NCBI GenBank assembly: GCA_002340095.1
Contig: DDKS01000067.1
Coordinates: forward strand, 831-64,830
DNA: 64,000 nucleotides
Reading direction: 5' to 3'
Source of the DNA: Betaproteobacteria bacterium UBA2592
Lineage (GTDB): Bacteria; Pseudomonadota; Gammaproteobacteria; Burkholderiales; Rhodocyclaceae
Both the position numbers and the translations under genes were made by a program. Under the pieces are notes generated by a model. It was not told the origin of the DNA, did not search any database, and worked only from the letters and a program-made list of their open reading frames with translations. Positions 11,503-61,681 of the stretch are shown piece after piece. Numbering within the stretch: the stretch's first letter is position 1; each line of letters starts with the position of its first letter.

Positions 11503-12705
11503 TCAGAATTGGATCCCGGATTTTTCGGCGACAGTATGCATGTCCTTGTCTCCACGGCCGGAGAGATTGACCAGCAGGATCTTGTCCTTGCCCAGGGTGG
11601 GCGCCAGCTTCATGGCATAGGCCAGGGCGTGGGAGGATTCCAGGGCAGGAATGATGCCCTCGTAGCGGCACAGGTCGTGGAAGGCCTGCAGGGCTTCGTC
11701 ATCGGTCACCGCCACGTACTCGGCGCGGCCACAGTCCTTGAGCCAGGCGTGCTCGGGGCCGACGCCGGGATAGTCGAGGCCGGCGGAGATGGAATGGGTC
11801 TCGATGATCTGGCCGTCCTCGTCCTGCATCAGGTAGGTACGGTTGCCATGCAGCACCCCCACTTTTGCGTTGGCAGTCAGCGGCGCTGCGTGCCGCCCGG
11901 TGTGGATGCCCTCCCCGGCCGCCTCGACACCGATCAGCTTGACCGATTCGTGCGGGATGTAGGGGTGGAAGATGCCGATGGCGTTGGAGCCGCCGCCCAC
12001 GGCGGCGATCACCGCATCGGGCTGACGCCCCATCATCTCGGACATTTGGGTGAGGCATTCCTTGCCGATCACGGTCTGAAAGTCGCGTACCATGGCCGGA
12101 TACGGATGCGGCCCTGCCACCGTGCCGATAATGTAAAAAGTGTTCTCGATGTGGGTAACCCAATCGCGCATGGCTTCGTTGAGGGCGTCCTTGAGGGTCC
12201 TGGAACCGGATTCCACGGGCACGACGGTGGCACCCAGGAGCTTCATCCGGTACACATTGGCGGCCTGGCGCTTCACGTCCTCGGCGCCCATGTACACGAC
12301 GCACTCGAAACCGTAGCGAGCCGCCACGGTGGCGGTGGCCACCCCATGCTGCCCGGCACCGGTCTCGGCGATCACCCGGGGCTTGCCCATGCGCTTGGCC
12401 AGCAAGGCCTGGCCGATGCAGTTGTTCACCTTGTGGGCGCCAGTGTGGTTCAGATCCTCCCGCTTCAGCAGGATCTGGGCGCCGCCCAGCTTTTCCGACA
12501 GGCGCCTGGCGTGATAGATGGGGCTCGGACGGCCGACATAATGCTTGAGCTCGTGTTCGAACTCGGCCTGGAAGGCCGGATCCGCCTGGGCGGCCGCATA
12601 GGCATCCCGCAGTTCGGCAAGGGCGGCGATCAGGGTTTCCGCCACGAAAATCCCGCCATAGGGACCGAAATGTCCCCGTTCGTCCGGCAGGTTGTAGTTC
12701 TGCAT
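11503..12705 (-). CDS. trpB: Tryptophan synthase beta chain
   Basis: [25 protein letters not shown]..., [16 protein letters not shown] (PLP lysine), [14 protein letters not shown] sits 8 nt before ATG 12705. Confidence 0.95.
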
Positions 12706-12744
12706 GGAACAGCTCCTTGGTTGGCTATTTGACACCAGGCTGGA

Positions 12745-13374
12745 TCAATCCCGGTCTGCCGCCCGCACGGCCGCCACGAAGTCGGCCATGCGCTGATGAT
12801 CCTTGATGCCCTTGCCCGCCTCGACGCCACTGGAAACATCCACGGCCGCCGGGCGTACCCGCCGTACTGCGTCGGCCACATTCTCCGGCGACAATCCGCC
12901 GGAAAGGATGAGCGGCAACGGCAGATCGGGCGGGATCAAGCGCCAGTCGAACACGTGGCCACCACCGCCGTAGCCCTCGACGAAGGCATCCAGCAGCAAG
13001 GCCCGGGCCCCGGAAAAACGGGCCGCGTATTGTAGCAAATCCAGCCCGGGCCGGACCCGGGCCGCACGAATCCAGGGCCGCCCCCAGCGGGCGCAATCCT
13101 CCGGTCCTTCATCGCCATGGAACTGGAGCAGGTTGAGGGGCACCTGATCGAGGATGGCCTGGATACGCGCCGCCTCCTCATTGACGAACAGGCCCACCGC
13201 CAGCACGAAGGGCGGCAGGCGCCGCACCAGGGCAGCCGCCTGCCCGGGTGTCACATGACGGGGACTTTGGGGATAAAAGACGAAACCGATGGCGTCAGCC
13301 CCGGCAGCCACGGCGGCATCCACATCCTCGGGACGGGTCAGACCGCAGATCTTGATTCGGGTGGGCATTTGCAT
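12745..13374 (-). CDS. trpF: Phosphoribosylanthranilate isomerase
   Basis: TRIKICGLTRPEDVDAAVAAGADAIGFVFYPQSPR...LSGGLSPENV. Confidence 0.9.
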   Translation of the reverse strand: MQMPTRIKICGLTRPEDVDAAVAAGADAIGFVFYPQSPRHVTPGQAAALVRRLPPFVLAVGLFVNEEAARIQAILDQVPLNLLQFHGDEGPEDCARWGRPWIRAARVRPGLDLLQYAARFSGARALLLDAFVEGYGGGGHVFDWRLIPPDLPLPLILSGGLSPENVADAVRRVRPAAVDVSSGVEAGKGIKDHQRMADFVAAVRAADRD

Positions 13375-43648: not shown

Positions 43649-43875
43649 GGTGAAGGTTGCTCCTGCAGTGCCAGGATATGGCGCCATCGTAGGGGAGGGA
43701 AGCCTCGCCGGCAACTCTCCCGGGCGATGCGGCAGCATCGGGGCGCCCCCTTGCGCAAACAGCCACCGGAAAATTCATTGCCGGGCAGCAGCACAAGGCC
43801 TGGCATGATGCCCCCGCCCCCTGGAATCAGGCCCGAGGGCACCCCGGCCTGACCTGACCTGACTTGCAGTCGGAC

Positions 43876-44367
43876 ATGAAAATGAACCTGGAAATACGCG
43901 AATTCGTCGAATCAGACCGTGCGCACCTGCGGAAGCTCTATGTCGCCTCCCGGGCCGCTGCGTTTCCGTGGCTGCCCCCCTCACGGCTTCGACTGGAGGA
44001 TTTTGACCGGGATACCCGGGAAGAGCGGGTCATCGTGGCACTCCTGGGGGCAACCCCGGCAGGCTTCGCATCCATCTGGGAGCCGGACCACTTCCTGCAC
44101 AATCTTTTCGTTCACCCGGATCATTTCCGCAAGGGGATTGGCAGAGCCCTGATCGGGCACTGCATGCCTTGCTTCGGGGGGCATGCAGCCCTGAAGTGCC
44201 TCAAGTCGAACGCCGGTGCCCATGCCTTTTATCTTCACCTGGGGTGGCGCGTGGCCGAATCTGGCGAATCGCCGGAGGGCCCGTATTTCCTGATGACGAT
44301 CGGGCGCCCTCCGCATCAGGAACCCCGCCACCGGCAGCAACCCGTTGAACCTAAAAACCTTATTTGA
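43876..44367 (+). CDS. GNAT family N-acetyltransferase
   Basis: LEIREFVESDRAHLRKLY..., acetyl-CoA motif LFVHPDHFRKGIGRALI, FYLHLGWRV. The start is uncertain (TTG 43864, ATG 43876 or 43882). The last roughly 19 aa (PPHQEPRHRQQPVEPKNLI) look like read-through. Confidence 0.72.
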   Translation: MKMNLEIREFVESDRAHLRKLYVASRAAAFPWLPPSRLRLEDFDRDTREERVIVALLGATPAGFASIWEPDHFLHNLFVHPDHFRKGIGRALIGHCMPCFGGHAALKCLKSNAGAHAFYLHLGWRVAESGESPEGPYFLMTIGRPPHQEPRHRQQPVEPKNLI

Positions 44368-44432: not shown

Positions 44433-45263
44433 ATGGGTGAGTCGATGATGACGGCGCTGGAAGCGCGTGACCAACCCTATCTCTTCAAGCTCAAGCTCTC
44501 GAAGAACGTCAAGCGCCACATCGGACGCATCTTCCGGGAAGCCGGCTGGAGCGATGCCGGCCAAGGCTGGGAGGGCAAGGATGGCGAGCTCTTGCTGACC
44601 GGCTGGGAAGCGAAGCGCCGGGTCGTCGTGCTGCGCCGTGCGCTCAAGGGCGAGGTCATGATGGCGGGGGAGGATGACGGCCAGCCATGGCTGGGGTTCA
44701 TCGAGGCAGATCGCAAGGCCGGCAAGCAAATTACCGGCTACGAATATGCGGTGTTGGTCACCAACACCGACTACGAGATCCTCTCCCTCGGACAGCTTTA
44801 CCGGGATCGCGCCGACGCGGAGAACGCCTTCGACGAGTTGAAAAACCAGTGGGGCTGGGGCGGCTTCACCACCCATGACCTGCATCGCTGCCAGTTGGCC
44901 GCCCGAACCGTGGCGCTCGTCTACAACTGGTGGAGCCTCTTCGTTCGTCTGGCCAACCCCGAATCGCGCCTCGAAGCCATCACCAGCCGTCCCTGGCTGA
45001 TGGCCTCGGTGGGCCGCCGGACGGAGCATGCCGGACAGACGACGATTATCCTGACCGGCCTGCACGCCCATTTCGAGAAGGCCCGGGCAGCCCTGATGCG
45101 AGTCTCCACCTTGCTTCAGGGCTGGAGCGCCCAGGCTGCGGAGCAGTTGGCCACCACCACCGTCTGGCTTCGCGTCTGCGATCATCTCAAGCGCCTCCTG
45201 GCAACCATCGGCCCCCCGCCAACCCATCGTTTGCTCGAAAATCATGCAAACGGAAGCGGTTAA
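44433..45263 (+). mobile_element. 5'-truncated IS4-superfamily DDE transposase remnant
   Basis: Carries the Y-(2)-R-(3)-E-(6)-K signature YRDRADAENAFDELK at 44799-44843, followed by NQWGWGGFTT. The frame is closed at 44418, and the roughly 65 nt between the GNAT stop and this ORF cannot hold the N-terminal Asp-containing half. Confidence 0.7.
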
Positions 45264-45632: not shown

Positions 45633-45709
45633 TGGTCGGGGCGGCGGGATTCGAACTCGCGACCCCTTGCACCCCATGCAAGTGCGCTACCAGGCTGCGC
45701 CACGCCCCG
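45633..45709 (-). tRNA. tRNA-Pro (anticodon GGG)
   Basis: Acceptor CGGGGCG/CGCCCCG, D-arm GCGC..GCGC, anticodon arm CTTGC-ATGGGGT-GCAAG, encoded CCA. The T-stem GCGAG/CCCGC has one A-C mismatch. Confidence 0.88.
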
Positions 45710-45786: not shown

Positions 45787-46059
45787 TCAGCCGCCCTGGT
45801 CCTCGATCCCGTACTTTTTCTCCAGCCGGCGCATGGCGAGCGCATAGCAGCCGACCACCAGCACGTAGATGATCAGGCTGCCCTGGGCCGCCATGTAGAA
45901 CCCCAGGGGAAAGCCGAAGAAGGAAAAGCCGTTGAGGCTGTCGGCAAAGTAGCTGGCCACGTAGGTCACCAGCACCCAGATCAGCAGCAGGGCCAGGGTC
46001 AGCTGCCGGTTGCGCAGCCAGTAACGCTGCTTCCGCTGTTCGAGCTCAGGGGTTTTCAT
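45787..46059 (-). CDS. DUF4212 protein (putative solute:sodium symporter small subunit)
   Basis: [58 protein letters not shown], 2 TM segments. Its ATG overlaps the symporter stop (ATGA at 46056-46059). Confidence 0.85.
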
Positions 46060-48086
46060 AGGGCCGGATACCGCACGCTTTCGACGAATTCCTGGATTTC
46101 CCGGGACGGGGGCGGGGTCAGCAGGCTGACCACCAGGATGACCAGCATGCCCGTGCCCACGCCCCAGACACCGGCGGCGATGGACTGGATGCCGAACCAG
46201 GGCTCCATGCGCAGGTCATGCAGGCCCAGCCAGGCGATGTGGTCCACCTCGAGCCGGACGATGTAGTAGAGACAGACCAGCCCCCCGACGAGCATCCCGG
46301 CGATGGCCCCCTGCTTGTTGGCGCGTTTCCAGAAGATGCCCAGCACCAGGGCCGGGAAGAAGGCCGAAGCCGCCAGGGAGAAGGCCCAGGCCACCATGTA
46401 GAGGATGGTGCCGGGCTTCTGGGCCGCCACCGTGGCCGCCAGCACCGCCACCACCAGGAGCAGGGACTTGGAAATCACCAGGCGCCACTGGGTCGAGGCA
46501 TCGGGACGGATGATGCGGTAATAAACGTCGTGGGATAGGGCGCTGGTGATGGTGAGCAAGAGGCCGTCGGCGGTGGACAAGGCCGCGGCCAGACCACCGG
46601 CCGCCACCAGGCCGGAAATGACGTAGGGCATGCCGGCGATTTCGGGCATGGCCAGCACGATCACGTCCGGGTTGAGGCTGAGTTCGGCCAGTTGCAGGCG
46701 GCCATCCCCGTTGATGTCCTCGATGCTCACCAGCCCCACTCGGCTCCAGGCCGAGAACCAGGCGGGCAGCTTGTCGAGCTCCAGGTTGACCAGGTGGGTG
46801 TAGATCTCGAACTTGGCGAACACGGCGTAGGCCGGGGCCGTGAGGTAGAGGAGCATGATGAACAGCAGGGACCAGAACACCGATTCCCGGGCCTGCCCCA
46901 CCGTGGGCGTGGTGTAGTAGCGGATCAGCACGTGCGGCAGCGCCGCGGTCCCGATGGTGAGGCAGAACACCAGGGCGAGGAAATTGATCCTGGCCTGATC
47001 CCGCTCCTGCTCCGTGTCCCCCGGGTAGGCCTGGGCATGGGGCCTGGGTGCCCGGGCCTTTTCCTCGGCCAGGCGCATTTCCTCGAGCCAGCGTTCCCGC
47101 GCCAGTTCCGGCGTGGCCGGCAGATCCCGCCGCTGGCGCTCCAGGGCGATGATGTCCCGGGCATGGGCGTCGCTGTCCTTCAGGGCGTTGATGCGCCGGG
47201 TGATGGCATCCCGCTCTTCCTGCAGGGATACGGGCAGTCGCTCAATCTTTTCCCGGAAGGTGGCGGCCCGGGCGGCATACTGCTCCCGGGCCGCCACCTC
47301 GCCGGGCCGGACAAACAGCTCCTGCTCCACCTCGCCCACCTGGGCCAGCACCTGGCCGTACATCACCTGGGGCACGGGCACGCCGGTGTTCTGGTAGGAG
47401 AGGATGGCCACGGGCACCACGTAGGCCACGATCAGGATCACGTACTGGGCCACCTGGGTCCAGGTCACGGCGCGCATACCCCCCAGGAAGGAGCAGACCA
47501 GGATGCCGGCCAGGCCGACAAACACCCCCACCTCGAACTGCAGGCCGACAAAACGGCTGGTGATCAGGCCCACCCCATAGATCTGGGCCACCACATAGAC
47601 GAAGGAGCAGAGGATGGCGGCGCCCACCCCCACCAGCCGGGCGCCATTGCCGCCATAACGGGCGCCGAGGAAGTCGGGAATGGTGTACTGGCCGAAACGG
47701 CGCAGGTAGGGCGCGAGCAGCAGGGCCACCAGCACGAAGCCACCGGTCCAGCCAAGCACGTAGGCCAGCCCCTGATAACCGGCCAGATACAAGGTGCCCG
47801 CCAGACCGATGAAGGAGGCTGCGCTCATCCAGTCGGCCCCGGTGGCCATGCCGTTGAAGATGGCCGGCACCCGGCGCCCGGCCACGTAATACTCGGACAC
47901 GTCGGCGGTGCGGCTCAGGACGCCGATGGCGGCATAAAGGAAGATGGTGAAGAACAAGAATACATAGCCGATCCAGCGCGCCGGCATGCCCTGGTACTCC
48001 AAAAAGGCCAGGGTGCCGATCAGGGCCAGGAAACCGCAGGTATACCAGCTGTAGTAGCGGCGCAACTGCTGGGAGAAGGTGCTCAC
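46056..48086 (-). CDS. Sodium:solute symporter family permease, VC2705/ActP-like
   Basis: EYYVAGRRVPAIFNGMATGADWMSAASFIGLAG..., many TM segments plus a long charged cytoplasmic insert (residues around 250-345). The GTG start directly follows the upstream stop. Confidence 0.9.
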   Translation of the reverse strand: MSTFSQQLRRYYSWYTCGFLALIGTLAFLEYQGMPARWIGYVFLFFTIFLYAAIGVLSRTADVSEYYVAGRRVPAIFNGMATGADWMSAASFIGLAGTLYLAGYQGLAYVLGWTGGFVLVALLLAPYLRRFGQYTIPDFLGARYGGNGARLVGVGAAILCSFVYVVAQIYGVGLITSRFVGLQFEVGVFVGLAGILVCSFLGGMRAVTWTQVAQYVILIVAYVVPVAILSYQNTGVPVPQVMYGQVLAQVGEVEQELFVRPGEVAAREQYAARAATFREKIERLPVSLQEERDAITRRINALKDSDAHARDIIALERQRRDLPATPELARERWLEEMRLAEEKARAPRPHAQAYPGDTEQERDQARINFLALVFCLTIGTAALPHVLIRYYTTPTVGQARESVFWSLLFIMLLYLTAPAYAVFAKFEIYTHLVNLELDKLPAWFSAWSRVGLVSIEDINGDGRLQLAELSLNPDVIVLAMPEIAGMPYVISGLVAAGGLAAALSTADGLLLTITSALSHDVYYRIIRPDASTQWRLVISKSLLLVVAVLAATVAAQKPGTILYMVAWAFSLAASAFFPALVLGIFWKRANKQGAIAGMLVGGLVCLYYIVRLEVDHIAWLGLHDLRMEPWFGIQSIAAGVWGVGTGMLVILVVSLLTPPPSREIQEFVESVRYPAL

Positions 48087-48719
48087 TCAGGACTCCCCGT
48101 GCAACCAGCGGCGCGCCCTGACCTGCTCCTGCAGCGCTGCCGGCGTCTCGATGCCCCGGGTGCGGGCAGCATTGAGCAGCCGCTGCAGCAGGCGGGCCAG
48201 CAGCAGGGCATCCTGCATCGGATCCCGCACAGCTTCGGGTCCCAGGCCTGCCTGCTCGAGCCAATGGTCCAGAGTGGCATCCGGCAGCGCTGCCTCCCGG
48301 TGGATTTCCGGCAGCAGCACCGCCAGGTCCAGCCACATGGAGCGGAACTCCAAGTCCAGGCTGGCTTCCAGGGCCTGCTCCAGAAACGGGCGCAGGAAAG
48401 GCAGCTGGAAGCCGACCAAGGGGGCCTTGCCGACGAACTCCAGCCAGGCAAGCCAGGCTTCCGGGTCAGGCTGGCCGGGTTCAATCCAGAAGGCATCGTC
48501 CGGGCGGATGCGGCCGTGGGTGAGCCCTACTGCCGCCAGGGAGCGGATGGCATGGCTCTGGGGGTCCAACCCGTCGGTCTTCAGGGACAGCACCACATAG
48601 CGGGTCTGGTAGTGGGCCTGCCCCAGGGAGGGCGGTGCCAGGGCCTGCCAGGCCTGCAGACGCTGCTGCTGCGGGATGGACAGGAGTGGCGCGTTTTTTC
48701 CGAAGAAGCGCATGGGCAT
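48087..48719 (-). CDS. DnaQ/RNase T-fold protein with substituted catalytic residues (pseudo-exonuclease)
   Basis: Aligns to the exonuclease domain of the 723-aa protein in this cluster, with substitutions: VVLSLKTDGLDP vs VFDTETTGLEP, LVGFQLPFLRPFL vs LVAHNAAFDMRFL, VRDPMQDALL vs RHNALGDAYA. Confidence 0.7.
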   Translation of the reverse strand: MPMRFFGKNAPLLSIPQQQRLQAWQALAPPSLGQAHYQTRYVVLSLKTDGLDPQSHAIRSLAAVGLTHGRIRPDDAFWIEPGQPDPEAWLAWLEFVGKAPLVGFQLPFLRPFLEQALEASLDLEFRSMWLDLAVLLPEIHREAALPDATLDHWLEQAGLGPEAVRDPMQDALLLARLLQRLLNAARTRGIETPAALQEQVRARRWLHGES

Positions 48720-48722
48720 GGC

Positions 48723-50669
48723 TCATCCTGCCTGGAAATCCAGCCGCAGCTTCTGCTGCAGCTTCCTCGCCTGGCGGAAGGCTTCCTTGAGGATGCGCCG
48801 GTCCAGTTCATTGAGGCGATCCGGGTAGATCAGGTTGTGCCCCTGCCCCCCCTCCACGCCGTCGAGCTGCTGCTGGCGCAGGCGCAGGAGCTGGATGTAG
48901 TTGAAGGCCTCGATGATGCCGCCCATCTCCTCCTCGTTGAAGGAAAGCCGGGCCGCCGCCTGACGCAGGCGCAGTACCGTGTTGGTCTGATAGACACCGG
49001 CAGCGAGGGCGTAGATGCGGGCCCCATCCACGAACAGGCGGGCACCGTATTTTTTCAGGTCGATGGCGCCCGGATGGTCGGCTTCCAGATCGGTGACAAA
49101 ATCGCGGATCATCCCCAGGGGCGGATGCACGGACAGGGCATTGACCGTCATGGCGCGCAGGAAGATCGGGCTTTCCGCCGCATGGGCGAGCAGCATGTGG
49201 CGCAACCGGCTGGCCAGATGGGTCTGGCCATAGAGGGGGCGGAAATCGAAGAAGATGGAAGCGTTGAGCAGGGCCTCCGGCTGGGGCCGGCGCATCCATT
49301 CGGCAAACAGCTCCTGCCATTCCTCCAGGGTCAGGCACCACTGGGGATTGCTGGCCATGATGTTGCCCTTGCACAAGGGAAAGCCGCAGCGATCCAGATC
49401 CGCATTCACGGCCCGGGCAAATTCGAGCAGGCGCATCTTCAGCATTTCCCGGTCGCTGAAGTCGTCGCAGACGAAGATGATGCCGTTGTCCTGGTCAGTA
49501 CTGAAAGTCTGCTCGTCTCGGCCCTCGGAACCAAAGGCCAGCCAGCACCAGTCGATGCCGTAGAGGTCGTGGTGATCCAGATTCAGTTCGAGGATGCGGC
49601 GGGTGAGTGCGTCATTGAGGGTGGAAATGAACTGGGTGAGCTGCTCGGCCCCCACCCCCTGGGCCAACATGTTGAAGGCCAGCTTGCGGATGTCCCGGGC
49701 CGCCTGCTGCAGCGCTTCCACATCGGGAGCCCGCTCGATGGCCTGACGGATCTGGGTGAGGCCGATGCGCTGCAGGGCAAACAGATCCCGCTCCGAAACC
49801 ACGCCGCACAGGCGCCCTTCGCCGTCGACGACCAGCACATGGCGGATGCCCCGGCTGGCCATGGCCAGCATCGCATCGTAGGCACTGGCATGCTCCCCGA
49901 GGCAGCAGGGGTCGGGAGTCATCACCTGGGCGGTGGGCACATCCAGGGAAGTACCCGCCAGCACCACCCGGTCGAGCAGGTCCGCCCGGGTCAGGATGCC
50001 CACGGGCCGGTGCGCCTCGTCCACCACGGCGACGGACCCCACATGGCTGCGGGACATGGTCTCCAGCGCCTGGCGCAGGGGAGTGTCGCGGCCCACCTGG
50101 ACCGGATCGCGCGAACCGACCTGGGCCAGCGGCGAATTGAGGGTCTGCTGGTCACTGGCCTGCTGGGCGAACAGGAGCTGCAACTGCTGGCGCGACTGGT
50201 TGAGCAAGGTGGCGATGTAGCGGGTGCAGAAGGCATTGAACTCTGGGCTCATCTCCATCAAGTCGAGCACATCGTCGGCCTGCAGCACAAAGCAGTAAAC
50301 ATCGGTGGCTGCCACATAGCGGTTGGTGGAAGGCCGCTGGGCCGTCACCGCGCCGAGGGGAAAACATTCCCCCACCCCCAGGGCCAGCACCGCGTGGCCG
50401 GCCAGCCCCGTCTCCCCCGCATCCAGGGACTGTACCTTACCCTGCTCGATGATGTAGAGATTCCGGGCCACGCCCTCCCCCGGACCGGTGATTTCGGCCC
50501 CCCTGGGGTAGAAGACGGAGGCGGCCCGCTCGGCCAGATAGTCCAGCGCCCGGGTTTCCATGCGCTGGAATGGCAGATGACGTTTCAGGAAACCCTGGGT
50601 GATCCTGGCCACCCTTTGTTGTCCCTGAACACCGGGCCCTGCCACCGGGCCCTGCTGTTCCCCGATCAA
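48723..50669 (-). CDS. cNMP-binding / tandem CBS / DUF294 nucleotidyltransferase signalling protein
   Basis: N-terminal CAP-effector-like domain (LYIIEQGKV...GECFPLGA), two CBS modules (GSVAVVDEAHRPVGILTRADLL; RHVLVVDGEGRLCGVVSERDLF), and the pol-beta NTase motif LAFGSEGRDEQTFSTDQDNGIIF. TTG 50669 is preceded by AGGAGA. Confidence 0.85.
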   Translation of the reverse strand: MIGEQQGPVAGPGVQGQQRVARITQGFLKRHLPFQRMETRALDYLAERAASVFYPRGAEITGPGEGVARNLYIIEQGKVQSLDAGETGLAGHAVLALGVGECFPLGAVTAQRPSTNRYVAATDVYCFVLQADDVLDLMEMSPEFNAFCTRYIATLLNQSRQQLQLLFAQQASDQQTLNSPLAQVGSRDPVQVGRDTPLRQALETMSRSHVGSVAVVDEAHRPVGILTRADLLDRVVLAGTSLDVPTAQVMTPDPCCLGEHASAYDAMLAMASRGIRHVLVVDGEGRLCGVVSERDLFALQRIGLTQIRQAIERAPDVEALQQAARDIRKLAFNMLAQGVGAEQLTQFISTLNDALTRRILELNLDHHDLYGIDWCWLAFGSEGRDEQTFSTDQDNGIIFVCDDFSDREMLKMRLLEFARAVNADLDRCGFPLCKGNIMASNPQWCLTLEEWQELFAEWMRRPQPEALLNASIFFDFRPLYGQTHLASRLRHMLLAHAAESPIFLRAMTVNALSVHPPLGMIRDFVTDLEADHPGAIDLKKYGARLFVDGARIYALAAGVYQTNTVLRLRQAAARLSFNEEEMGGIIEAFNYIQLLRLRQQQLDGVEGGQGHNLIYPDRLNELDRRILKEAFRQARKLQQKLRLDFQAG

Positions 50670-50762
50670 GACGATTCTCCTGGTGAATTAAAGCGTTGGG
50701 GCTTGCATTTTATGTGCTGGCGGCCCAGGCGGGCAGATGCTCACCCGCACCGGGGCCGCGCG

Positions 50763-52934
50763 TCAGTACTTGACCCGGGCAAAATAGGTCTTCTGGGAAG
50801 CCTCCAGGGCCTGGCGCAGGGTGTGGATGCCCTTTTCCGCCAGCAGCGGGATCATCTTCAGGAAGACCTCGCCGGTGGCATAGGCATCTCCGAGCGCGTT
50901 GTGACGGCCGATGATCGGGACGCCCAGGCGCTCGGCGATCACGTCGAGCTTGTGGGATTCCTGATTCGGGTGGATGACGGCGGAGAGCAGCAGGGTGTCG
51001 AGCACCGGCTGGGAAAACTTAAGGCCGGTGCGCTCTTCCTTGAGCTGCAAGAAGCGCATGTCGAAGGCGGCGTTATGGGCCACCAGCACGGTTTCGCTGC
51101 AAAAGGCATGGAACGCGGGGAGGACCACATCGATGCTGGGCTTGCCGCGCAACATCTCCTCGGTGATGCCGTGGATGGGAATGCCCTCGGGTCGCAACGG
51201 ACGCTGGGGATCCACGAGCTGGTCAAAAGACTCCTGACGCAGTAGGCGACCGTTTACGATACGCACGGCCCCGATCTGGATGATTTCATCGCCATTGGCA
51301 GGCTCCAGCCCGGTGGTCTCGGTATCGAAGACCGTGTAGGCCATTTCCATCAGGTTGCGGTCCAGGTCCACCCCGGTGTCCTGGAAGTTGAACAGGTCAA
51401 AGTCGTAATATTCGGGACGGCCCTGCTGGGCGCCGGCAGGCAGCTCCGGCACCTCCTGGACGGCCTGGGCCAGAGGCAACACAAAGCGGAAATAGGCCCG
51501 GTGCGCCGCCTTCTCCCGCTGGTACCAGATCTCCCCGCCGTGCCGGTCGAGCACTTCACGCAGGGACACGGGTGCGCTTTCGCGGCCCACCTGCATGTTC
51601 TCCTGCTCCCAGCTGTAGAAGGTTTCGGAGGACATGGCATGGCCGGACCAGATCAGGTCCAGATAGGCCAGCTTCCCCTCGGACAGCCCCCGGAAGCGCA
51701 ACTCGCGGATTTCGTAGTGGTCGGCCAGCCGGCCGGCCAGGAAGGTGATGGCGAAGATCAGGGAAAAGCTGTCGGCCCGGACCCAGAGGTTGTCCTCGAT
51801 GCCCTCGATCTTGCTCGACAGCTTGAAGAGCTCGTCGATGCGCCGCTGGGCCGCCTTGATCAGATCCTCCGCCGACACATCCTCCAGCGGCCAGCGGGTC
51901 TTGGTGGCATCGGCAAAGCGCTGGGCCGTCCCCTCCAGCTGCCGGCTCATGCGCCCCACTTCCTCGGCCACCACCTGGATGAAGCGTTCGCGCTCCTGCA
52001 TGTCCATGTCGGGATAATCCTGCAGGGTTTCGACGGCGGCCCGGATATTGCCGATGGCGGCCCGGTTACCCTGGGTCAGTTCCAGAAGTGCCTGGTTGCG
52101 GGCATTTTCCTGTTCCAGGCTGCGGGTGATGTTTTCCACGGTGAGCACATAACCGGTCATGGGGCGAGGTCCGGCTTCGGCCTCCCCGGGAGCCAGCACC
52201 GGCACCATCTGCACGCGCAGGAACTGGCCGCTCGCAGTGGTGGTGATGAAGTGGGCCACATTGGCAGGCAGTCCGCGTTCGAGCCGCTGGCGGATGGTTT
52301 CCTCGGCATGGGCCAGGCGGCTCCGGTCGATGATAGAGAAGATGGAGCGTCCCAGCCCGATCAGGGCACCGGAGGCCACCGAGGTCGGCCCCTGGGCCAG
52401 GGTGTGAAATTCCAGGCGGGCCCGGTTGTTGTAGAGCAGGATACGACCATCCAGATTGCACACCACCACGGCCTGGGCCAATTCCGACATGAGGGCGGCG
52501 AGGCGGTTCTTTTCCTCCTCCACCGAGGCCTTGGCCCGGGCGATCTGAGCCTCCACGTCGGCCATCAGCTCGTCCCGCTGCTGGGCCAGGTCGTTGATGG
52601 CCCGGGCCACCAGCTGCACCTCGGGCGGACCATCCTCGGCAGTGACACGGAAATTGCGGTTGGCCCCAAGCATCAGGCGCAGGTGCTCGGCCATGCGCAG
52701 CAGGCCCTGGACATACTGGCGAAAGAGGGTGCGCACCACCGCCAGACCCAGGCCAAACCCCAGGGCGGTGAGCAGAGTGCCCATGGGCAGGTGGGGCACG
52801 ATCAGCTCCTTGAGCTGGGTCCGCTGGTCGGGAGTCATTTCCATCCACACCAGGGTGGAAGTGGCCAGGAAGGGCCCCGTAACCAGGGCGCCCAGCACCA
52901 GAATCGCCAGGATGAATCGATAGCGGGCCTGCAT
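50763..52934 (-). CDS. Membrane HAMP-PAS-pseudo-histidine-kinase fused to a DEDDh 3'-5' exonuclease domain
   Basis: 2 TM segments, a HAMP-like linker, and PAS (AVVVCNLDGRILLYNNRA). The DHp-like helix LTQGNRAAIGNIRAAVETL has Gln where the neighbouring kinase has His (VTHELRTPLTSIRAFSELL). The CA-like domain lacks N/G1/G2 boxes. The C-terminal exonuclease has intact FDTETTGL, HNAAFD and HNALGD motifs. Confidence 0.85.
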   Translation of the reverse strand: MQARYRFILAILVLGALVTGPFLATSTLVWMEMTPDQRTQLKELIVPHLPMGTLLTALGFGLGLAVVRTLFRQYVQGLLRMAEHLRLMLGANRNFRVTAEDGPPEVQLVARAINDLAQQRDELMADVEAQIARAKASVEEEKNRLAALMSELAQAVVVCNLDGRILLYNNRARLEFHTLAQGPTSVASGALIGLGRSIFSIIDRSRLAHAEETIRQRLERGLPANVAHFITTTASGQFLRVQMVPVLAPGEAEAGPRPMTGYVLTVENITRSLEQENARNQALLELTQGNRAAIGNIRAAVETLQDYPDMDMQERERFIQVVAEEVGRMSRQLEGTAQRFADATKTRWPLEDVSAEDLIKAAQRRIDELFKLSSKIEGIEDNLWVRADSFSLIFAITFLAGRLADHYEIRELRFRGLSEGKLAYLDLIWSGHAMSSETFYSWEQENMQVGRESAPVSLREVLDRHGGEIWYQREKAAHRAYFRFVLPLAQAVQEVPELPAGAQQGRPEYYDFDLFNFQDTGVDLDRNLMEMAYTVFDTETTGLEPANGDEIIQIGAVRIVNGRLLRQESFDQLVDPQRPLRPEGIPIHGITEEMLRGKPSIDVVLPAFHAFCSETVLVAHNAAFDMRFLQLKEERTGLKFSQPVLDTLLLSAVIHPNQESHKLDVIAERLGVPIIGRHNALGDAYATGEVFLKMIPLLAEKGIHTLRQALEASQKTYFARVKY

Positions 52935-52937
52935 GAC

Positions 52938-53309
52938 TCAGCCCCCCGCCAGGAGCTGTTTGATCTGTGCCACCAACTCCTTGTTGGAGAAGGGTTTTGT
53001 CACGTAGGCATCGGCCCCGAGGCCCAGTCCCTTCGCGACTTCCGTGTCCCTGCCCTTGGCGGTGAGCATGACGATTTTCATGGCGCTGCGGGCCGGATCG
53101 GCCCGCAGGATCTCGCACACCTCGTAACCGGACTTCTTCGGCATCATCACGTCCAGCAGCACCAAATCCGGGGCAAAAGCCTGAACCTGCTCCAGGGCTG
53201 CGTCCCCGTCGGCCGCCACAGCCACCTGGAAGCCCTCCCGCTTCATGAGGAATTCCAGGGACAAGACGATGTTCGGTTCATCATCGACGATCAGGATCTT
53301 GTGGGTCAT
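52938..53309 (-). CDS. Single-domain response regulator (CheY-like, no output domain)
   Basis: MTHKILIVDDEPN...DLVLLDVMMPKKSG...VMLTAKG...AYVTKPF. All phospho-acceptor pocket residues are present. GGGAGGAGAG precedes ATG 53309. Overlaps the kinase 3' end by 29 nt. Confidence 0.9.
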   Translation of the reverse strand: MTHKILIVDDEPNIVLSLEFLMKREGFQVAVAADGDAALEQVQAFAPDLVLLDVMMPKKSGYEVCEILRADPARSAMKIVMLTAKGRDTEVAKGLGLGADAYVTKPFSNKELVAQIKQLLAGG

Positions 53310-56229: not shown

Positions 56230-56438
56230 CAGTTTCCTTCCCGGAAAATACAGACGAAAACGGCCGACGCACGCATGCGCCGGCCGCTTCGGGCGCCACG
56301 CAGGGCGTGGCCGCCATTGGGACACCCGGACTGCTGATAGGTGCCCATGTCTCTCTCCTGCCTCCTTATCAGTGTGTTTCAGACGGGCATGGGCAGAATG
56401 CCCGCCTGGAATCCGCTTCCCGGCGCGGAGCCGGGGAA

Positions 56439-56469: not shown

Positions 56470-58437
56470 TCAGCCCTTGAGCTGCTCCAGGATGGCCGGG
56501 TTTTCCAGGGTGGAAGTATCCTGGGTGACTTCCTCGCCCTTGGCCAGGGAACGCAGCAGACGACGCATGATCTTGCCGGAACGGGTCTTGGGCAGGTTGT
56601 CGCCGAAGCGGATGTCCTTCGGCTTGGCGATGGGACCGATTTCCTTGCCCACCCAGTCCTGCAGTTCCTTGATGATCTTCTTGGCTTCGTCGCCGGTCGG
56701 ACGGGCCCGCTTGAGCACCACGAAGGCCACGATGGCTTCGCCGGTCAAGTCGTCGGGACGCCCCACCACGGCGGCTTCGGCCACGAGTTCGTGCGCCACC
56801 AGGGCGGATTCGATTTCCATGGTGCCCATGCGGTGGCCAGACACGTTGAGCACATCGTCGATACGGCCGGTGATAGTGAAGTAACCGGTCTTGGCATCAC
56901 GGATGGCGCCATCGCCTGCCAGATACAGGCGACCACCCAGATCCTCGGGGTAGTAGGACTTCTTGAACCGCTCGGGATCGCCCCAGATGGTACGGATCAT
57001 GGAAGGCCAGGGCTTCTTGACCACCAGGATACCGCCCTGACCCCAGGGCACATCGGAACCCGTCTCGTCCACCACTGCGGCCTGGATGCCGGGGAAGGGC
57101 AGCGTGCAGGAACCAGGCACCAGAGGGGTTGCACCGGGCATCGGAGTAATCATGTGCCCCCCCGTCTCGGTCTGCCAGAAGGTATCGACGATGGGGCAAC
57201 GACCACCGCCCACATTCTGGTAGTACCACTCCCAGGCAGCGGGATTGATGGGCTCACCCACGGAACCCAGCAGGCGCAGACTGGACAGGTCGTAGTTCTT
57301 GGGATGCACGGCGGGGTTGGCATCGGCCGCCTTGATCAGGGAACGGATGGCGGTCGGCGCAGTATAGAAGATGGTGGCCTTGTGGTCCTGGATCATCCTC
57401 CAGAAACGGCCGGCGTCCGGATAGGTGGGCACGCCTTCGAACACGACCTCGGTGGCACCGCAGGCCAGGGGGCCGTAAGTGATGTAGGTGTGACCAGTGA
57501 CCCAGCCGATATCGGCGGTACACCAGAAGACATCGGAAGGCTTGATGTCGAAGGTGTATTTCATGGTCAGAATGGCATGCAGCAAGTAACCACCGCTGGA
57601 GTGCTGCACTCCCTTGGGTTTGCCGGTGGAACCGGATGTGTAGAGCAGGAACAGGGGATGTTCGGCCTCGACCCACTCGGGCTCGCAGGTATCGGGCTGA
57701 TTGGCCAGACCTTCGTGCAGCCACTCGTCACGGCCAGGCACCATATTCACTTCGGCACCGGTGCGCTTGAAGACGATGACATGCTTGACGGACTCGCAGC
57801 CGCCCATGGAGAAAGCCTCGTCGGCGATGGGCTTCAGGGGAATGGACTTGCCGCCGCGGAACTGGCCATCGGAGGTGATCAGCACAACAGCGCCAGCATC
57901 GTTGATACGGTCGCGCAGGGACTGGGCGGAGAAACCGCCGAAGACGACGGAATGGGTGGCGCCAATGCGGGCGCAGGCCTGCATGGCGACGACGCCCTCG
58001 ATCGTCATGGGCAGATAGATGACGACGCGATCACCCTTCTTGACCCCCTTGCTTTTGAGCAGGTTGGCCATCTTGCAGACGCGGACCAGCAGTTCCTTGT
58101 AGGTCACCTTGGTGACCTGGCCGTCATCAGCCTCGAAAATGATGGCGGTTTTGTCGCCGTTACCAGCCTCGATGTTGCGATCCAGACAGTTATAGGAGAC
58201 GTTCAGCTTGCCATCGGAGAACCACTTGTAAAAAGGCGCATCGGACTCATCCAGCACCTGGGTGAAGGGGGTCTGCCAGCTCACCAGTTCCCGTGCATGG
58301 CGGGCCCAGTAGCCTTCGTAATCCTGTTCCGCCTCCGCGCACAGCGCCTTGTAGGCATCCATCCCGGAAACAGCTGCATTCTTCACGAACTCGGGGGACG
58401 GATAGTAAAGCTGCACGGATTCATTCGACATAGACAT
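56470..58437 (-). CDS. acs: Acetyl-CoA synthetase
   Basis: [19 protein letters not shown]-binding motif [32 protein letters not shown]. The start may be the second ATG at 58431, which has better spacing to GAGGAGA. Confidence 0.95.
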
Positions 58438-58741
58438 TCTCCTCTGCGGTATAGGTATCGGGTGATACTTCGGATGAACTGCATAAACAGACGTTTTCGC
58501 AGCATTAGACTCAGATAATCTTACAAAGCGCTTACACTTTCACGCTGCAGCGCAGCATCTGCGCGGCTTGCAGGGCCGCAGCAGCCCATGGCGCTCATGA
58601 TAAAATCCGGCCCGCCCTGCCCCGCATCCTTCGCGACACCCATGACGCCGGCGCCCCCGGCCATGGATCCCGCCGTGGGCGGGATCGCCGGACGACGGCC
58701 CGGAAAGCCCCCCCCGCAACGACCATCACGGAGATAAGCAC

Positions 58742-60262
58742 ATGACAAGTATCCGCCAGGAAGACCTGATCCAGTCCATCGCCGACGCCTTCCAGTACAT
58801 CAGCTACTACCATCCCCTGGACTACATCAAGGCCCTGGGCGAAGCCTACGAGCGTGAGGAATCCCCCGCCGCCAAGGATGCGATTGCCCAGATCCTGACC
58901 AATTCCCGCATGGCTGCTGAAGGCCACCGCCCCATCTGCCAGGATACCGGCATCGGCATGGTCTTCCTCAAGGTCGGCATGAACGTGCGCTGGGACGATG
59001 CCACCATGAGCCTGCAGGAGATGGTCAACGAAGGCGTGCGCCGTGCCTACGCCAATCCGGACAACCCGCTGCGCGCCTCGGTGCTGGCCGACCCGGCCGG
59101 TGCCCGCAAGAACACCAAGGACAACACCCCGGCCGTCGTGCATTACGAGATCGTCCCCGGCGACCACGTGGAAGTCATCTGCGCCGCCAAGGGGGGCGGC
59201 TCGGAAGCCAAATCCAAGTTCGCCATGCTCAACCCGTCCGACGACCTGGTTGACTGGGTGCTGAAGAAGATTCCGGAAATGGGCGCCGGCTGGTGCCCGC
59301 CGGGCATCATCGGCATCGGCATCGGTGGCACGCCGGAAAAGGCCATGCTGCTGGCCAAGGAATCGATCATGGCGCCGGTGGACATCCACGAATTGAAGGC
59401 TCGCGGCCCGAAGAACCGCGCCGAGGAACTCCGTCTCGAGCTGTACGAAAAGATCAACGCGCTGGGCGTTGGCGCCCAGGGTCTGGGCGGCCTGACCACC
59501 GTGCTCGACGTCAAGGTGCTCGACTACCCTTGCCACGCGGCCAACCTGCCGGTCGCGCTGGTGCCGAACTGCGCCGCCACACGCCACTGCCACTTCCATC
59601 TGGATGGCTCCGGCCCGGCCAGGCTCGAACCGCCCAAGCTCTCCGACTGGCCGGCCGTGACCTGGACACCGGATATCAAGTCGGCGACCCGCGTCAATCT
59701 CGACACCCTGACCAAGGACGAAGTCGCCTCCTGGAAGGTCGGCCAGAAGCTGCTCTTGAACGGCAAGATGCTCACCGGCCGCGATGCCGCGCACAAGCGC
59801 ATCCAGGACATGCTGGCCAAGGGTGAGAAGCTGCCGGTCGATTTCACCAACCGCGTCATCTACTATGTTGGCCCGGTCGATCCGGTGCGCGACGAAGTCG
59901 TCGGCCCGGCCGGTCCGACCACCGCCACCCGCATGGACAAGTTCACCCGCATGATGCTGGAAAAAACCGGCCTCATCTCGATGATCGGCAAATCCGAGCG
60001 CGGTCCGGTCGCCATCGAGGCGATCAAGGACAACAAGTCGGCCTACCTGATGGCCGTGGGCGGCGCCGCCTACCTCGTGGCCAAGGCGATCAAGTCGGCC
60101 AAGGTGGTGGGATTCGAGGATCTGGGCATGGAAGCGATTTACGAGTTCGAAGTGCAGGACATGCCGGTGACGGTGGCGGTGGACTCCACCGGTGCGAACG
60201 TCCATGAAAGCGGCCCGAAGGAATGGCAGATCAAGATCGGCAAGATTCCGGTCAAGGCCTGA
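58742..60262 (+). CDS. fumA: Class I (Fe-S) fumarate hydratase
   Basis: ICQDTGIGMVFLKVG, AAKGGGSEAKSKF, GIGIGGTPEKAM, and a C-terminal beta-type domain (LLLNGKMLTGRDAAHKR). GGAG sits 8 nt before the ATG. Confidence 0.9.
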   Translation: MTSIRQEDLIQSIADAFQYISYYHPLDYIKALGEAYEREESPAAKDAIAQILTNSRMAAEGHRPICQDTGIGMVFLKVGMNVRWDDATMSLQEMVNEGVRRAYANPDNPLRASVLADPAGARKNTKDNTPAVVHYEIVPGDHVEVICAAKGGGSEAKSKFAMLNPSDDLVDWVLKKIPEMGAGWCPPGIIGIGIGGTPEKAMLLAKESIMAPVDIHELKARGPKNRAEELRLELYEKINALGVGAQGLGGLTTVLDVKVLDYPCHAANLPVALVPNCAATRHCHFHLDGSGPARLEPPKLSDWPAVTWTPDIKSATRVNLDTLTKDEVASWKVGQKLLLNGKMLTGRDAAHKRIQDMLAKGEKLPVDFTNRVIYYVGPVDPVRDEVVGPAGPTTATRMDKFTRMMLEKTGLISMIGKSERGPVAIEAIKDNKSAYLMAVGGAAYLVAKAIKSAKVVGFEDLGMEAIYEFEVQDMPVTVAVDSTGANVHESGPKEWQIKIGKIPVKA

Positions 60263-60279
60263 GCGCTCCGCTCCCACCA

Positions 60280-60307
60280 GGCCCGCCCCGCCCGGCGGGC
60301 CTTTTTC
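60280..60307 (+). terminator. Rho-independent terminator after fumA
   Basis: GGCCCGCC-CCGCCC-GGCGGGCC followed by TTTTTC. Confidence 0.75.
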
Positions 60308-60366
60308 ATGGGACCTCGCCCCTTCACGATCCAGAAGGAACTCCCTCCTTTCACACCCCCATCGCC

Positions 60367-60726
60367 ATGGACATCCAACGTCACGGAACCACCCGCCGTT
60401 ATTCCGATTTCGTCTGCCACGCAGGCACCGTCTATCTGGTGGAAGTGCCACCGGACCCCACGGCCGACATCCGCACCCAGACCCGGGAAACCCTGGCCAG
60501 CCTCGAACGGCTGCTGGCCCAGGCCGGCAGCGACAAGTCGCGCCTGCTGCTGGCCACCCTCTATCTGCGCGACATGGCCGATTACGAGGCCATGAACGAA
60601 GTCTGGGACGCCTGGCTTCCTGCCGGCACAGCCCCGGCCCGGGCCTGCGTGCAGGCAAAACTGGCCCATCCGGATTACCGGGTCGAAATCGTGCTCATCG
60701 CCGCCCAGAACCGCCAGCCCGCCTGA
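60367..60726 (+). CDS. RidA/YjgF/UK114 family protein
   Basis: MDIQRHGTTRRYSDFVCHAGTVYLV...TRETLASLERLLAQAGSDKSRLLLATLYLRDMADYEAMNEVW...ARACVQAKL...VEIVLIAA. Confidence 0.8.
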   Translation: MDIQRHGTTRRYSDFVCHAGTVYLVEVPPDPTADIRTQTRETLASLERLLAQAGSDKSRLLLATLYLRDMADYEAMNEVWDAWLPAGTAPARACVQAKLAHPDYRVEIVLIAAQNRQPA

Positions 60727-60736
60727 GACACAAGGC

Positions 60737-61681
60737 TCAGCCCCCGCTCCTGAGGGGCTTCCCGGGACCATGCACGCGCACTTGCCCCGGTCCGGCCGCC
60801 CTGGCCTCTTCCAGCCGGCACAGGGCCAGATGCAGCAGCGACTCGCCGGAAAGCCCACCGTCCTCGGGACGGCTGGCTGCCCCGGCGCTGAAAGACAAGG
60901 GCACCAACCGCCCCTGCACCACGATGCGGGCGGATGCGGCGCTGCGGGCCACCCGACTGGCAAAGGCAGCGCACTGATCAAGGCGATGGCAGCGGGTGGC
61001 AATGGCAAAACAGCCGGGCCGGTAGTGGCCGATGATGTCGCCCCCCGTGAGCTTGCTCTGCACCAGCCGGGCAAAACGCTCCGTGATGCGGGCGGCGACA
61101 GCCTTGCCGAAGCTGGTTTCCAGACCCGCGTAGCCATCCGCCTCGAAAACCAGGATGGCCCCGGTGTCCCCGGGGCTGGCCAGCATGCGCTGGATCCCCG
61201 TTTCCAGCAGGGTGCGGGACAGCAGCCCGGCATCCCTGAAGCCCATCCCGCCCTTGCCGGAGCGGGCGGGAATGGATGGCGGCATCTCGCCCCTGGCAGC
61301 TTCCCCGGCCGTTGCCCGGTGGGGAGCCAGCCGTTCCAGGATTGCGGCCTTTTCGGTGCCATTGAGGATGTAGCCGTCAAGCCCCAGTTTTTCCGCCTCC
61401 GGAAGGATCTCGGCAATCCGGGTCTCCGAACCCACGAAATAAAAAGGAAGTTGTTTGAGGCGCTTGAGCTTGCTGCGGCGCAGGCGCTCCAGCAGATCAA
61501 GCCCCTTGAGCCGGGACACATCCGGCCCGGCGATGACGCAAGTCACATCGTGGTCGAGAACCAGGGTCTGCCATGCCGATTCGCCATCCAGCGCCTCGAC
61601 GATCTGAAAATCCCCGGCCAGATGCCGGGCCAGGGTACCGCGCACAACCCTGGATTGATGCACGAGCAATATCTTTCTCAT
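60737..61681 (-). CDS. Pseudo-receiver + degenerate GGDEF domain protein
   Basis: The REC-like N-terminus reads ILLVHQS (acidic pair replaced) and YILNG where K-P is expected. The C-terminal GGDEF fold has YRPGCFAI in place of GGDEF/GGEEF and no RxxD. Confidence 0.75.
   Translation of the reverse strand: MRKILLVHQSRVVRGTLARHLAGDFQIVEALDGESAWQTLVLDHDVTCVIAGPDVSRLKGLDLLERLRRSKLKRLKQLPFYFVGSETRIAEILPEAEKLGLDGYILNGTEKAAILERLAPHRATAGEAARGEMPPSIPARSGKGGMGFRDAGLLSRTLLETGIQRMLASPGDTGAILVFEADGYAGLETSFGKAVAARITERFARLVQSKLTGGDIIGHYRPGCFAIATRCHRLDQCAAFASRVARSAASARIVVQGRLVPLSFSAGAASRPEDGGLSGESLLHLALCRLEEARAAGPGQVRVHGPGKPLRSGG

Follow-up and report, generated by a model that had tools for sequence, protein, structure and literature searches.

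The stretch analysed here, 64,000 nucleotides of contig DDKS01000067.1 from Betaproteobacteria bacterium UBA2592 (hereafter the window), encodes on its reverse strand a membrane-anchored protein of 723 amino acids in which a sensor kinase core that has lost its phospho-acceptor and ATP-binding residues is fused to a DEDDh 3'-5' exonuclease with a complete set of catalytic residues. The gene follows those for a sensor kinase and a stand-alone receiver (REC), and the protein belongs to a family of at least 432 clusters at 50% identity. We propose that it is the signal-receiving effector of this three-gene module, in which the pseudokinase would read the REC and gate the exonuclease; we put the probability of this model at roughly 45%. 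The parts are known (pseudo-histidine kinases, DEDDh exonucleases and SLC5-STAC signalling), and for a dead kinase that senses a REC there is a single precedent, DivL; the novelty lies in how they are combined, namely in a large, conserved and unrecognised family in which such a kinase appears to pass a two-component signal on to a nuclease.

Pseudokinase core and exonuclease domain of the family

The family was delimited by an exhaustive search of residues 1–525 against 1.84 billion cluster representatives (50% identity clusters), which gave 1466 matches at E <= 1e-3, of which 432 reached E <= 1e-30; most are 705–750 amino acids long. Homologs span residues 1–723, that is, the whole open reading frame up to its stop codon, and the 99 full-length family sequences that were aligned are 29–56% identical to the protein of the window.

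Residues ~270–490 constitute a DHp and CA core by three independent lines of evidence: profile–profile comparison, a profile search of the PDB, and predicted structure. An hhalign comparison of the family module (99 sequences) with the cores of neighbouring kinases (64) returned a probability of 99.3% (E = 9.4e-21, 219 columns). A profile of 18 diverse N-terminal regions matched VicK (8.6e-18), ThkA (1e-8), another kinase (1e-8), DivL (3.6e-7) and HK853 in the PDB. The AlphaFold2 model, built on an alignment of 81 diverse homologs (mean predicted local distance difference test score, pLDDT, 89; predicted template modelling score 0.76), placed sensor kinases at the top of a Foldseek search, led by WalK (5e-20) and followed by VicK, YF1, ThkA, DivL (E = 4e-9) and NifL (9QQ6). 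Pfam searches of the single sequence gave sub-threshold matches here (HATPase_c, E = 0.011; PAS_7, E = 0.09), and Pfam and NCBIfam together detect the exonuclease only, so that profile–profile comparison and structure prediction are required to recover the kinase core. Over 18 family members, Pfam detected PAS in 11, HAMP in 3, HisKA in 1 and HATPase_c in 1; because HisKA and HATPase_c are so rarely detected, the family is annotated merely as an exonuclease.

The residues on which kinase activity depends have been replaced throughout. In the window protein, the phospho-His position is occupied by Q288, which lines up with the His of VTHELRTPL; R402 stands in for the N-box Asn, W429 for the G1 Asp, and GRESAP for the G2 motif GxGLGL. 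Across the 99 aligned sequences, the His position holds Glu in 56, Gln in 10, Asp in 9, Ala in 6 and His in 3; the N-box position is Arg in 64 and Asn in a single sequence; the G1 position is Trp in 92; and the G2 box is degenerate when aligned against the neighbouring kinases. The latter are intact at the same positions (His 64/64, Asn 65/65, Asp 65/65, G2 glycines 64–65/65). The HisKA phosphatase motif H-[E/D]-x-x-[T/N] is likewise absent from the family, the consensus being E-x-x-R-A with Ala, Ser or Gly at position +4. Three members (P0174, P0222 and P0228) do have His where the phospho-acceptor would lie, yet they too have lost the N-box Asn and carry the G1 Trp; this His could have reverted by chance, or could accept phosphate from another kinase.

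The exonuclease domain is the sole confident Pfam call on the protein (RNase_T, residues 535–691, E = 1.4e-36), and it contains every DEDDh residue: D537 and E539 of Exo I (D-x-E), D625 of Exo II, and H678 and D683 of Exo III (H-x4-D). These are retained in 96, 96, 95, 96 and 97 of the 99 family sequences, respectively, a conservation by which the active site is under strong purifying selection. The domain matched the PolC exonuclease 2p1j at E = 6e-34 (identity to PolC 36–42%); according to Foldseek, its predicted structure superposes on the PolC exonuclease with a root-mean-square deviation of 1.7 Å over 190 amino acids (36% identity) and on epsilon with 2.3–2.5 Å. The nearest solved relatives (PolC, epsilon, ExoX, DinG and Cas2-DEDDh) are all DNA exonucleases.

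NCBIfam matches are confined to this domain; the best are to PolC-type and "DEDD exonuclease" models, far under the equivalog cut-offs, and the small-exonuclease models also fall short (PRK09145, 87 vs 189; PRK07740, 138 vs 261). Many homologs carry the database name "DNA polymerase III subunit epsilon". We reject this label as unsupported, because the dnaQ equivalogs score far below their cut-offs (TIGR01406, 116.9 vs 222.7; NF004316, 115.1 vs 196); the protein ends with the exonuclease domain at residue 723 and has no epsilon C-terminal alpha-binding segment. PADLOC found no known anti-phage defence system in the window, returning generic domain-level matches for DEDDh and REC proteins and none for DUF294.

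Since the same pattern recurs in about 100 sequences at this level of divergence, it is not a product of chance; and since the nuclease residues are kept while the kinase residues are lost family-wide, selection has retained the nuclease chemistry and discarded the kinase chemistry. On the evidence of the alignment, kinase loss is an ancient, family-wide trait rather than a lesion in a single genome.

N-terminal to the core, hydropathy places two transmembrane helices at about residues 7–29 and 49–71 with an outside loop of ~19 amino acids between them, so the protein has no periplasmic sensor domain. The HAMP-like segment that follows is weakly supported by Pfam (3/18 members), and the family profile matches HtrII and the TM-HAMP-PAS segment of VicK, with a helix-loop-helix at residues 35–150 in the AlphaFold2 model. 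In the cytoplasmic PAS domain, C159, N169 and G193 are invariant and Y168, R196, S197, H209 and R240 near-invariant across the family alignment, a pattern that hints at a pocket for a particular ligand or cofactor (heme on a helix-F His, a carboxylate, or a redox-active thiol); C159, R196, H209 and R240 are candidate ligand contacts.

Between the core and the exonuclease, the decapeptide R-P-E-[FY]-Y-D-F-D-L-F (residues 506–515) is conserved at 82–96% per position inside an otherwise variable linker of low model confidence, and it is also retained in copies without a neighbouring kinase and REC. It looks like a partner-binding short linear motif, and would be a second candidate docking site for the REC; we take it to resemble the acidic/hydrophobic peptides bound by CheY-type receivers (FliM, CheZ).

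The first-pass annotation, made from the letters of the window without database searches, had described two transmembrane helices, HAMP, PAS and a DHp/CA-shaped module with Gln in place of the phospho-His and unrecognisable N, G1 and G2 boxes, followed by an RNase T/DnaQ domain with the full DEDDh set. This description stands, with HAMP its weakest element and PAS backed by Pfam in 11/18 members; the profile searches (hhalign at 99.3%; VicK, ThkA and DivL in the PDB) substantiate the HisKA/HATPase-like fold, and the substitutions are those of the homologs at large, His persisting in 3/99. Not recognised in that annotation were the CbrA-type SLC5-STAC nature of the upstream kinase and its CbrX-like peptide, and the tight linkage to genes for a DUF294 nucleotidyltransferase, a pseudo-exonuclease and a monocarboxylate symporter, a context that hints at the role of the nuclease.

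Gene neighbourhood and synteny

Related loci were collected by a scan of one genome per species that yielded at least 538 confirmed loci; the neighbourhood analysis covers the best 80, in which the neighbours from the window were counted by tblastn over the loci with enough flank. In 61 of 70 loci, the gene directly upstream on the same strand encodes an SLC5-STAC kinase, and a REC adjoins the start of the pseudokinase–exonuclease gene in 69 of 76 (gap 0–157 nucleotides, median about 15), with D9, D10, D53 and K105 conserved. Of 69 loci, 55 contain DUF294, which in 36 comes directly after the pseudokinase–exonuclease gene. The order kinase–REC–pseudokinase–exonuclease is seen across Beta- and Gammaproteobacteria. 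Hosts among the best 80 loci include Rhodocyclales (Dechloromonas, Azonexus, Zoogloea, Thauera, Accumulibacter and Sulfuritalea), Burkholderiales (Hydrogenophaga, Rhodoferax, Rubrivivax and Aquincola) and Gammaproteobacteria (Thiothrix, Competibacter, Thioalkalivibrio and Wenzhouxiangella).

Seven loci have neither the kinase nor the receiver. In a Competibacter locus of this type, the gene is divergent from a yjcH-actP operon with acs nearby, and in an Accumulibacter locus it directly follows an MFS transporter gene; the link to monocarboxylate uptake therefore outlives the loss of the link to the kinase. Two loci in bins labelled Chloroflexi (L061 and L071) have full Burkholderiales-like synteny, indicating mis-binning or horizontal transfer, and two others (L072 and L077) carry two family copies per contig, one after the kinase and the other about 6 kb downstream.

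In the window (Table 1), the receiver gene ends at 52938 and the pseudokinase–exonuclease ATG begins at 52934, leaving 3 nucleotides between them in the same frame, so the first-pass annotation was also right that the gene starts immediately after an output-less receiver. The REC gene is translationally coupled to the pseudokinase–exonuclease gene. The receiver has no output domain and looks live, given that D9, D10, D53 and K105 are conserved. Residues 7–609 of the upstream kinase match the CbrXA SLC5-STAC structure 10ED (E = 2.5e-75); Pfam found no match in its membrane domain. The CbrX-like peptide before it is counted from Met33 of a 94-amino-acid open reading frame, a start favoured because the hairpin downstream of acs lies upstream of it, and an equivalent gene is kept before the kinase in at least 30 related loci. 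This hairpin is probably the acs terminator, marking the start of a separate signalling and transport operon.

Table 1. Positions of the genes, domains and other elements discussed, numbered along the window.
Feature	Position	Strand	Basis or remark
Fumarate hydratase, class I	58742..60262	+	divergent from acs
RidA/L-PSP protein	60223..60726	+	follows fumarate hydratase
REC-GGDEF protein	60737..61681	-	weak domain scores
acs	58437..56470	-	followed by hairpin with 15-bp stem
Hairpin, 15 pairs (9 G-C)	56290..56257	-	between acs and CbrX-like reading frame
CbrX-like two-TM peptide, 62 aa	56041..56229	-	ends 6 nt upstream of kinase start
CbrA-like SLC5-STAC-HisKA-HATPase transceptor kinase, 917 aa	53281..56034	-	HisKA + HATPase_c; catalytic motifs intact
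Stand-alone receiver (REC), 123 aa	52938..53309	-	Response_reg, E = 4e-30; start overlaps kinase end by 29 nt
Pseudokinase–exonuclease, whole gene	50763..52934	-	TM-HAMP-PAS-pseudoDHp-pseudoCA-linker-DEDDh exonuclease; AlphaFold2 pLDDT 89
TM hairpin, aa 3–71	52722..52928	-	hydropathy; AlphaFold2 helices 3–32 and 35–90
HAMP-like helix-loop-helix and signalling helix, aa 72–150	52485..52721	-	family profile; Pfam in 3/18; AlphaFold2
Cytoplasmic PAS, aa 151–269	52128..52484	-	Pfam PAS families in 11/18 members; AlphaFold2 PAS fold 155–268
DHp-like two-helix hairpin without phospho-acceptor, aa 270–345	51900..52127	-	hhalign 99.3% vs neighbour kinase; AlphaFold2 helices 270–306 and 312–345
Q288 codon at phospho-His position	52071..52073	-	aligned on His of VTHELRTPL; codon checked
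CA-like (GHKL-fold) domain, ATP-binding residues replaced, aa 346–490	51465..51899	-	profile alignment; AlphaFold2 alpha/beta fold 351–488; Foldseek kinase CA matches
Disordered variable linker, aa 491–530	51345..51464	-	AlphaFold2 disorder 489–530, pLDDT about 50
Short linear motif RPEYYDFDLF, aa 506–515	51390..51419	-	82–96% conserved per position, flanks variable
DEDDh (DnaQ/PolC-type) 3'-5' exonuclease, aa 531–723	50766..51344	-	RNase_T, E = 1.4e-36; AlphaFold2 532–720
cNMP-binding/CBS/CBS/DUF294 nucleotidyltransferase	48723..50669	-	Pfam; 93 nt downstream of pseudokinase–exonuclease
Exonuclease-like protein, DEDDh residues lost, 210 aa	48087..48719	-	weak NCBIfam and PADLOC DEDDh matches
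VC_2705-family sodium/solute symporter	46056..48086	-	TIGR03648, 788 bits
DUF4212 small subunit	45787..46059	-	TIGR03647; then tRNA-Pro
tRNA-Pro	45633..45709	-	downstream end of operon
DDE transposase remnant, truncated	44433..45263	+	downstream end of operon
GNAT acetyltransferase	43864..44367	+	downstream end of operon

From the CbrX-like gene to DUF4212, the array runs in one direction with gaps of -29 to 93 nucleotides. After the acs hairpin, a hairpin scan of the array gave weak short-stem matches and no strong terminator-like hairpin (long G+C-rich stem), and an Rfam scan of the window found three tRNAs and neither a riboswitch nor a small RNA in the operon. The 210-amino-acid protein encoded after DUF294 is a second dead enzyme housed in the operon, its Exo I, II and III motifs reading SLKTDGL, GFQLPFL and RDPMQDA; nine homologs (Dechloromonas, Azonexus) are equally degenerate, and the gene is present in 10/81 loci (the window and 9/80).

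Loci of the Dechloromonas and Azonexus type (L001, L002, L005, L008, L019 and others) have an extra gene, at about 12200..13300, between the pseudokinase–exonuclease and the full-length DUF294 genes; the nucleotidyltransferase half of DUF294 alone matches it, and the cNMP/CBS part is apparently absent. The VC_2705-family symporter of the window is about 90 amino acids longer than the family model, and a charged stretch at about residues 260–370 may be a cytoplasmic insertion. DUF4212 is downstream of the large subunit in the window and upstream of it in several related loci. The operon is bounded at its downstream end by a tRNA gene, an acetyltransferase gene and a transposase remnant, and genes for fumarate hydratase, RidA and a REC-GGDEF protein lie on the other side of acs. 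Two long open reading frames on the strand opposite to the real genes that they overlap (46692..51245, +, 1517 amino acids; 58595..60658, -, 687 amino acids) have no family matches, and were therefore treated as shadows of high G+C content.

Proposed signalling route and competing explanations

Homology to CbrA and CrbS suggests that the SLC5-STAC transceptor kinase, together with the CbrX-like peptide, would report the availability or flux of a solute. Given its intact motifs and the coupling of the genes, the kinase would phosphorylate the stand-alone receiver, the phosphorylation state of which the dead DHp/CA core would sense in the manner of DivL with DivK, possibly with help from the linker peptide. 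The ensuing change in the dimeric helical core, combined with input from the PAS domain, would switch the exonuclease on or off at the membrane. The exonuclease and the DUF294 nucleotidyltransferase may then work as opposing activities, the former trimming nucleotides off the 3' end of a nucleic acid, or off the product of the transferase; acetate assimilation and the monocarboxylate symporter encoded alongside (its expression or its activity) would thereby come under control.

The last of these steps draws on synteny and on genetics in Pseudomonas and Shewanella. In Pseudomonas putida, pp_0354 (CBS/DUF294) and pp_0353 (RNase_T exonuclease) form an operon, the promoter of which is bound by ErdR, the regulator of the SLC5-STAC system MxtR/ErdR (= CrbS/CrbR); deletion of pp_0353 and deletion of actP-I cause the same growth defect on pyruvate, and mRNA degradation was raised by the authors as a speculation (PMC9927547). 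In Pseudomonas aeruginosa, PA3232–PA3235 (exonuclease, DUF294, ActP and YjcH) are co-induced about 16-fold on propionate (PMC9765439). The substrates of DUF4212/SSS transporters in Shewanella and P. stutzeri are lactate or D-alanine, and these transporters are cofit with the adjacent COG2905/RNase T gene, which the authors suggested is needed for expression of the symporter (bioRxiv 10.1101/072470). A passage of PMC5715377 cites the long-standing prediction that DUF294 proteins nucleotidylate proteins.

Docking of the REC on the dead DHp, as the first-pass annotation proposed, gains in plausibility, as it fits both the conserved three-gene module and the residues of DHp alpha-1. Exposed residues of this helix are conserved in the family (R291, A/G295, R298, A299, A300 and E302), and small ones fill the positions at which real kinases touch their receivers. 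In addition, the family profile scores 38–69 bits against neighbouring kinase cores (58 for the kinase of the window), compared with about 33–37 bits for the best solved kinases over the same region; by this measure, the dead core seems to have arisen from, or to share a clade with, the cognate kinase, consistent with a common partner surface. Glu at the His position could mimic phospho-His and thereby favour the unphosphorylated REC.

Several observations weigh against the model that the pseudokinase reads the REC to gate the exonuclease. At the positions that set receiver specificity, the pseudo-DHp fits the true kinase partly (A/G vs T, A vs F). Conservation of the DHp is equal in copies with and without a neighbouring kinase and REC (n = 7 without); it could thus stem from dimerisation and not from contact with a REC, unless the seven copies use a REC encoded elsewhere. 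The exonuclease domain is nearest to DNA-proofreading enzymes and RNase T matches at just E = 0.04, so an RNA substrate is without homology support. Finally, deletion of pp_0354 in P. putida had no phenotype on acetate or succinate (PMC9927547).

A fuller statement of the proposal holds that this is the first two-component pathway to have a nuclease as its terminal effector, that a DivL-like dead kinase reads the state of a bare REC phosphorylated by a transporter-like kinase, and that exonuclease and DUF294 act as an add/remove pair on 3' ends or on a nucleotidyl mark that sets the monocarboxylate transporter; we consider that all of this together is somewhat unlikely.

The equal conservation of the DHp would fit a dead DHp/CA core that is solely a scaffold for dimerisation and signal transmission in a PAS-regulated nuclease, with another role for the REC (phosphate sink, or partner of DUF294 or of the linker motif only). 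Several invariant polar residues in the PAS domain point to a ligand of its own, and RPE[FY]YDFDLF offers an alternative binding site. On the other hand, the REC adjoins the start codon in nearly all loci counted and lies 3 nucleotides away in the window, this receiver has no other obvious output, and the small exposed residues of DHp alpha-1 are conserved beyond the needs of a coiled-coil core. We give this explanation perhaps the odds of a secondary candidate, unlikely as matters stand.

The kinship between the pseudo-core and the neighbouring kinases, closer than to any solved kinase, could also mean that the protein modulates the kinase, as RetS does GacS, by forming heteromers with the CbrA-like kinase or by competing for the REC, the nuclease being independent of phosphorylation; both proteins are membrane-anchored and co-translated. 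Such a modulator would leave the receiver without a pathway output, the near-invariance of the nuclease active site speaks for the nuclease as the purpose of the protein, and copies exist without a neighbouring kinase. We regard this as improbable.

A more radical version of the proposal directs the enzyme to DNA: DFDLF would dock the epsilon/PolC-like exonuclease on the beta sliding clamp, tying carbon-source sensing to DNA transactions such as replication or repair. Known clamp-binding motifs include QL[SD]LF, the optimised QLDLF and the TFPLF of UmuD; DFDLF presumably resembles these, agreeing with QLDLF at 3 to 4 of 5 positions. The conservation of the motif in a disordered linker beside the exonuclease domain and the fact that the nearest solved relatives of this domain are all DNA exonucleases speak for such recruitment, whereas the usual leading Gln is missing from the motif, the protein is anchored in the membrane, and its conserved neighbours all concern solute transport or acetate and none DNA metabolism. 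We hold this, too, to be improbable.

The remaining alternatives, an ordinary kinase that recently lost its His in a decaying gene or the replicative epsilon subunit that database names suggest, have a negligible chance of being correct: loss of the His, Asn, G1 and G2 residues shared by sequences down to 29% identity, with frame and nuclease residues conserved, refutes a recently broken kinase, and neither the dnaQ scores nor the C-terminus fit epsilon.

The output of a two-component pathway is nearly always a transcription factor, a second-messenger enzyme or a motor. If the proposal is true, a dead kinase that couples a receiver to a nuclease would add a class of output at the post-transcriptional or nucleic-acid level, and would provide a second example, this time enzymatically readable, of the DivL principle of a kinase used backwards. 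The family also offers a handle on the DUF294/exonuclease pair, which is found with permeases for acetate and monocarboxylates in Pseudomonas, Vibrio and Shewanella and has phenotypes without a known mechanism. Wastewater bacteria that scavenge acetate and store polymers (Accumulibacter, Competibacter, Dechloromonas, Zoogloea, Thauera and Thiothrix) are numerous among the hosts of the best 80 loci, and control of acetate uptake is central to their ecology and engineering use. The current annotation misleads on both counts: the epsilon name is incorrect, and Pfam misses the pseudokinase module in the protein of the window and in nearly all members scanned.

Comparison with known systems

In the literature on DUF294 with exonuclease, pseudokinase with exonuclease, and symporter with kinase and exonuclease, we did not find a pseudokinase–exonuclease fusion described. 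A Cupriavidus two-component preprint deals with a VsrBC-like system that is unrelated, and the exonuclease is absent from the RpuS/R paper.

The exonuclease domain has the same DEDDh fold and the same five catalytic residues as PolC and epsilon (DnaQ) exonucleases (2P1J, 9QPC, 2IDO), but it is not part of a polymerase, has no epsilon C-terminal alpha-binding tail, and is fused to a membrane sensor. NifL, a PAS-PAS-H-GHKL protein that is the anti-activator of NifA, is a kinase-shaped, non-phosphorylating sensor that acts through protein contacts, as we propose for the pseudokinase; unlike the latter, it has neither a fused enzyme nor a receiver partner. NifL keeps a nucleotide-binding GHKL domain.

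The closest parallel for the pseudokinase is DivL of Caulobacter crescentus (PDB 4Q20), likewise a PAS-DHp-CA protein with the phospho-His replaced (by Tyr in DivL; by Gln, Glu or Asp in the family). DivL is paired with a stand-alone receiver and senses DivK~P, just as the pseudokinase–exonuclease is paired, at the level of genes, with a bare REC. Receiver binding has been demonstrated for DivL; for the family it is proposed. DivL has no enzymatic output and modulates the kinase CckA, whereas here an exonuclease is fused. The CA domain of DivL also keeps more nucleotide-binding features than that of the family, in which the Asn, the G1 Asp and G2 have all been replaced.

The upstream kinase resembles CbrXA and CrbS (10ED) in its SLC5-STAC architecture, and cbrX precedes cbrA as the two-TM peptide gene precedes the kinase gene in the window; CbrX packs against the transporter domain of CbrA (PMC13488458). 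The signalling partner of CbrA is the NtrC-type CbrB, and that of the hybrid kinase CrbS is the LuxR-type CrbR. The kinase of the window, unlike these, has no PAS or REC of its own, and its partner is a bare receiver followed by the pseudokinase–exonuclease.

By domain type, the pairs pp_0354/pp_0353 and PA3233/PA3232 of Pseudomonas are the counterparts of the window genes, with DUF294 beside a DEDDh exonuclease, the same class of SLC5-STAC sensor kinase, and ActP/SSS transporters and acs in both settings. In Pseudomonas the wiring is transcriptional, with a LuxR-type regulator on the promoter and an exonuclease that is small and soluble. In the window, by contrast, a TM-HAMP-PAS-pseudokinase module is built into the exonuclease protein, and the receiver encoded before it lacks a DNA-binding domain, which implies post-translational control. 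Seen against this analogy, the pseudokinase–exonuclease family appears to be a post-translational rewiring of the Pseudomonas circuit.

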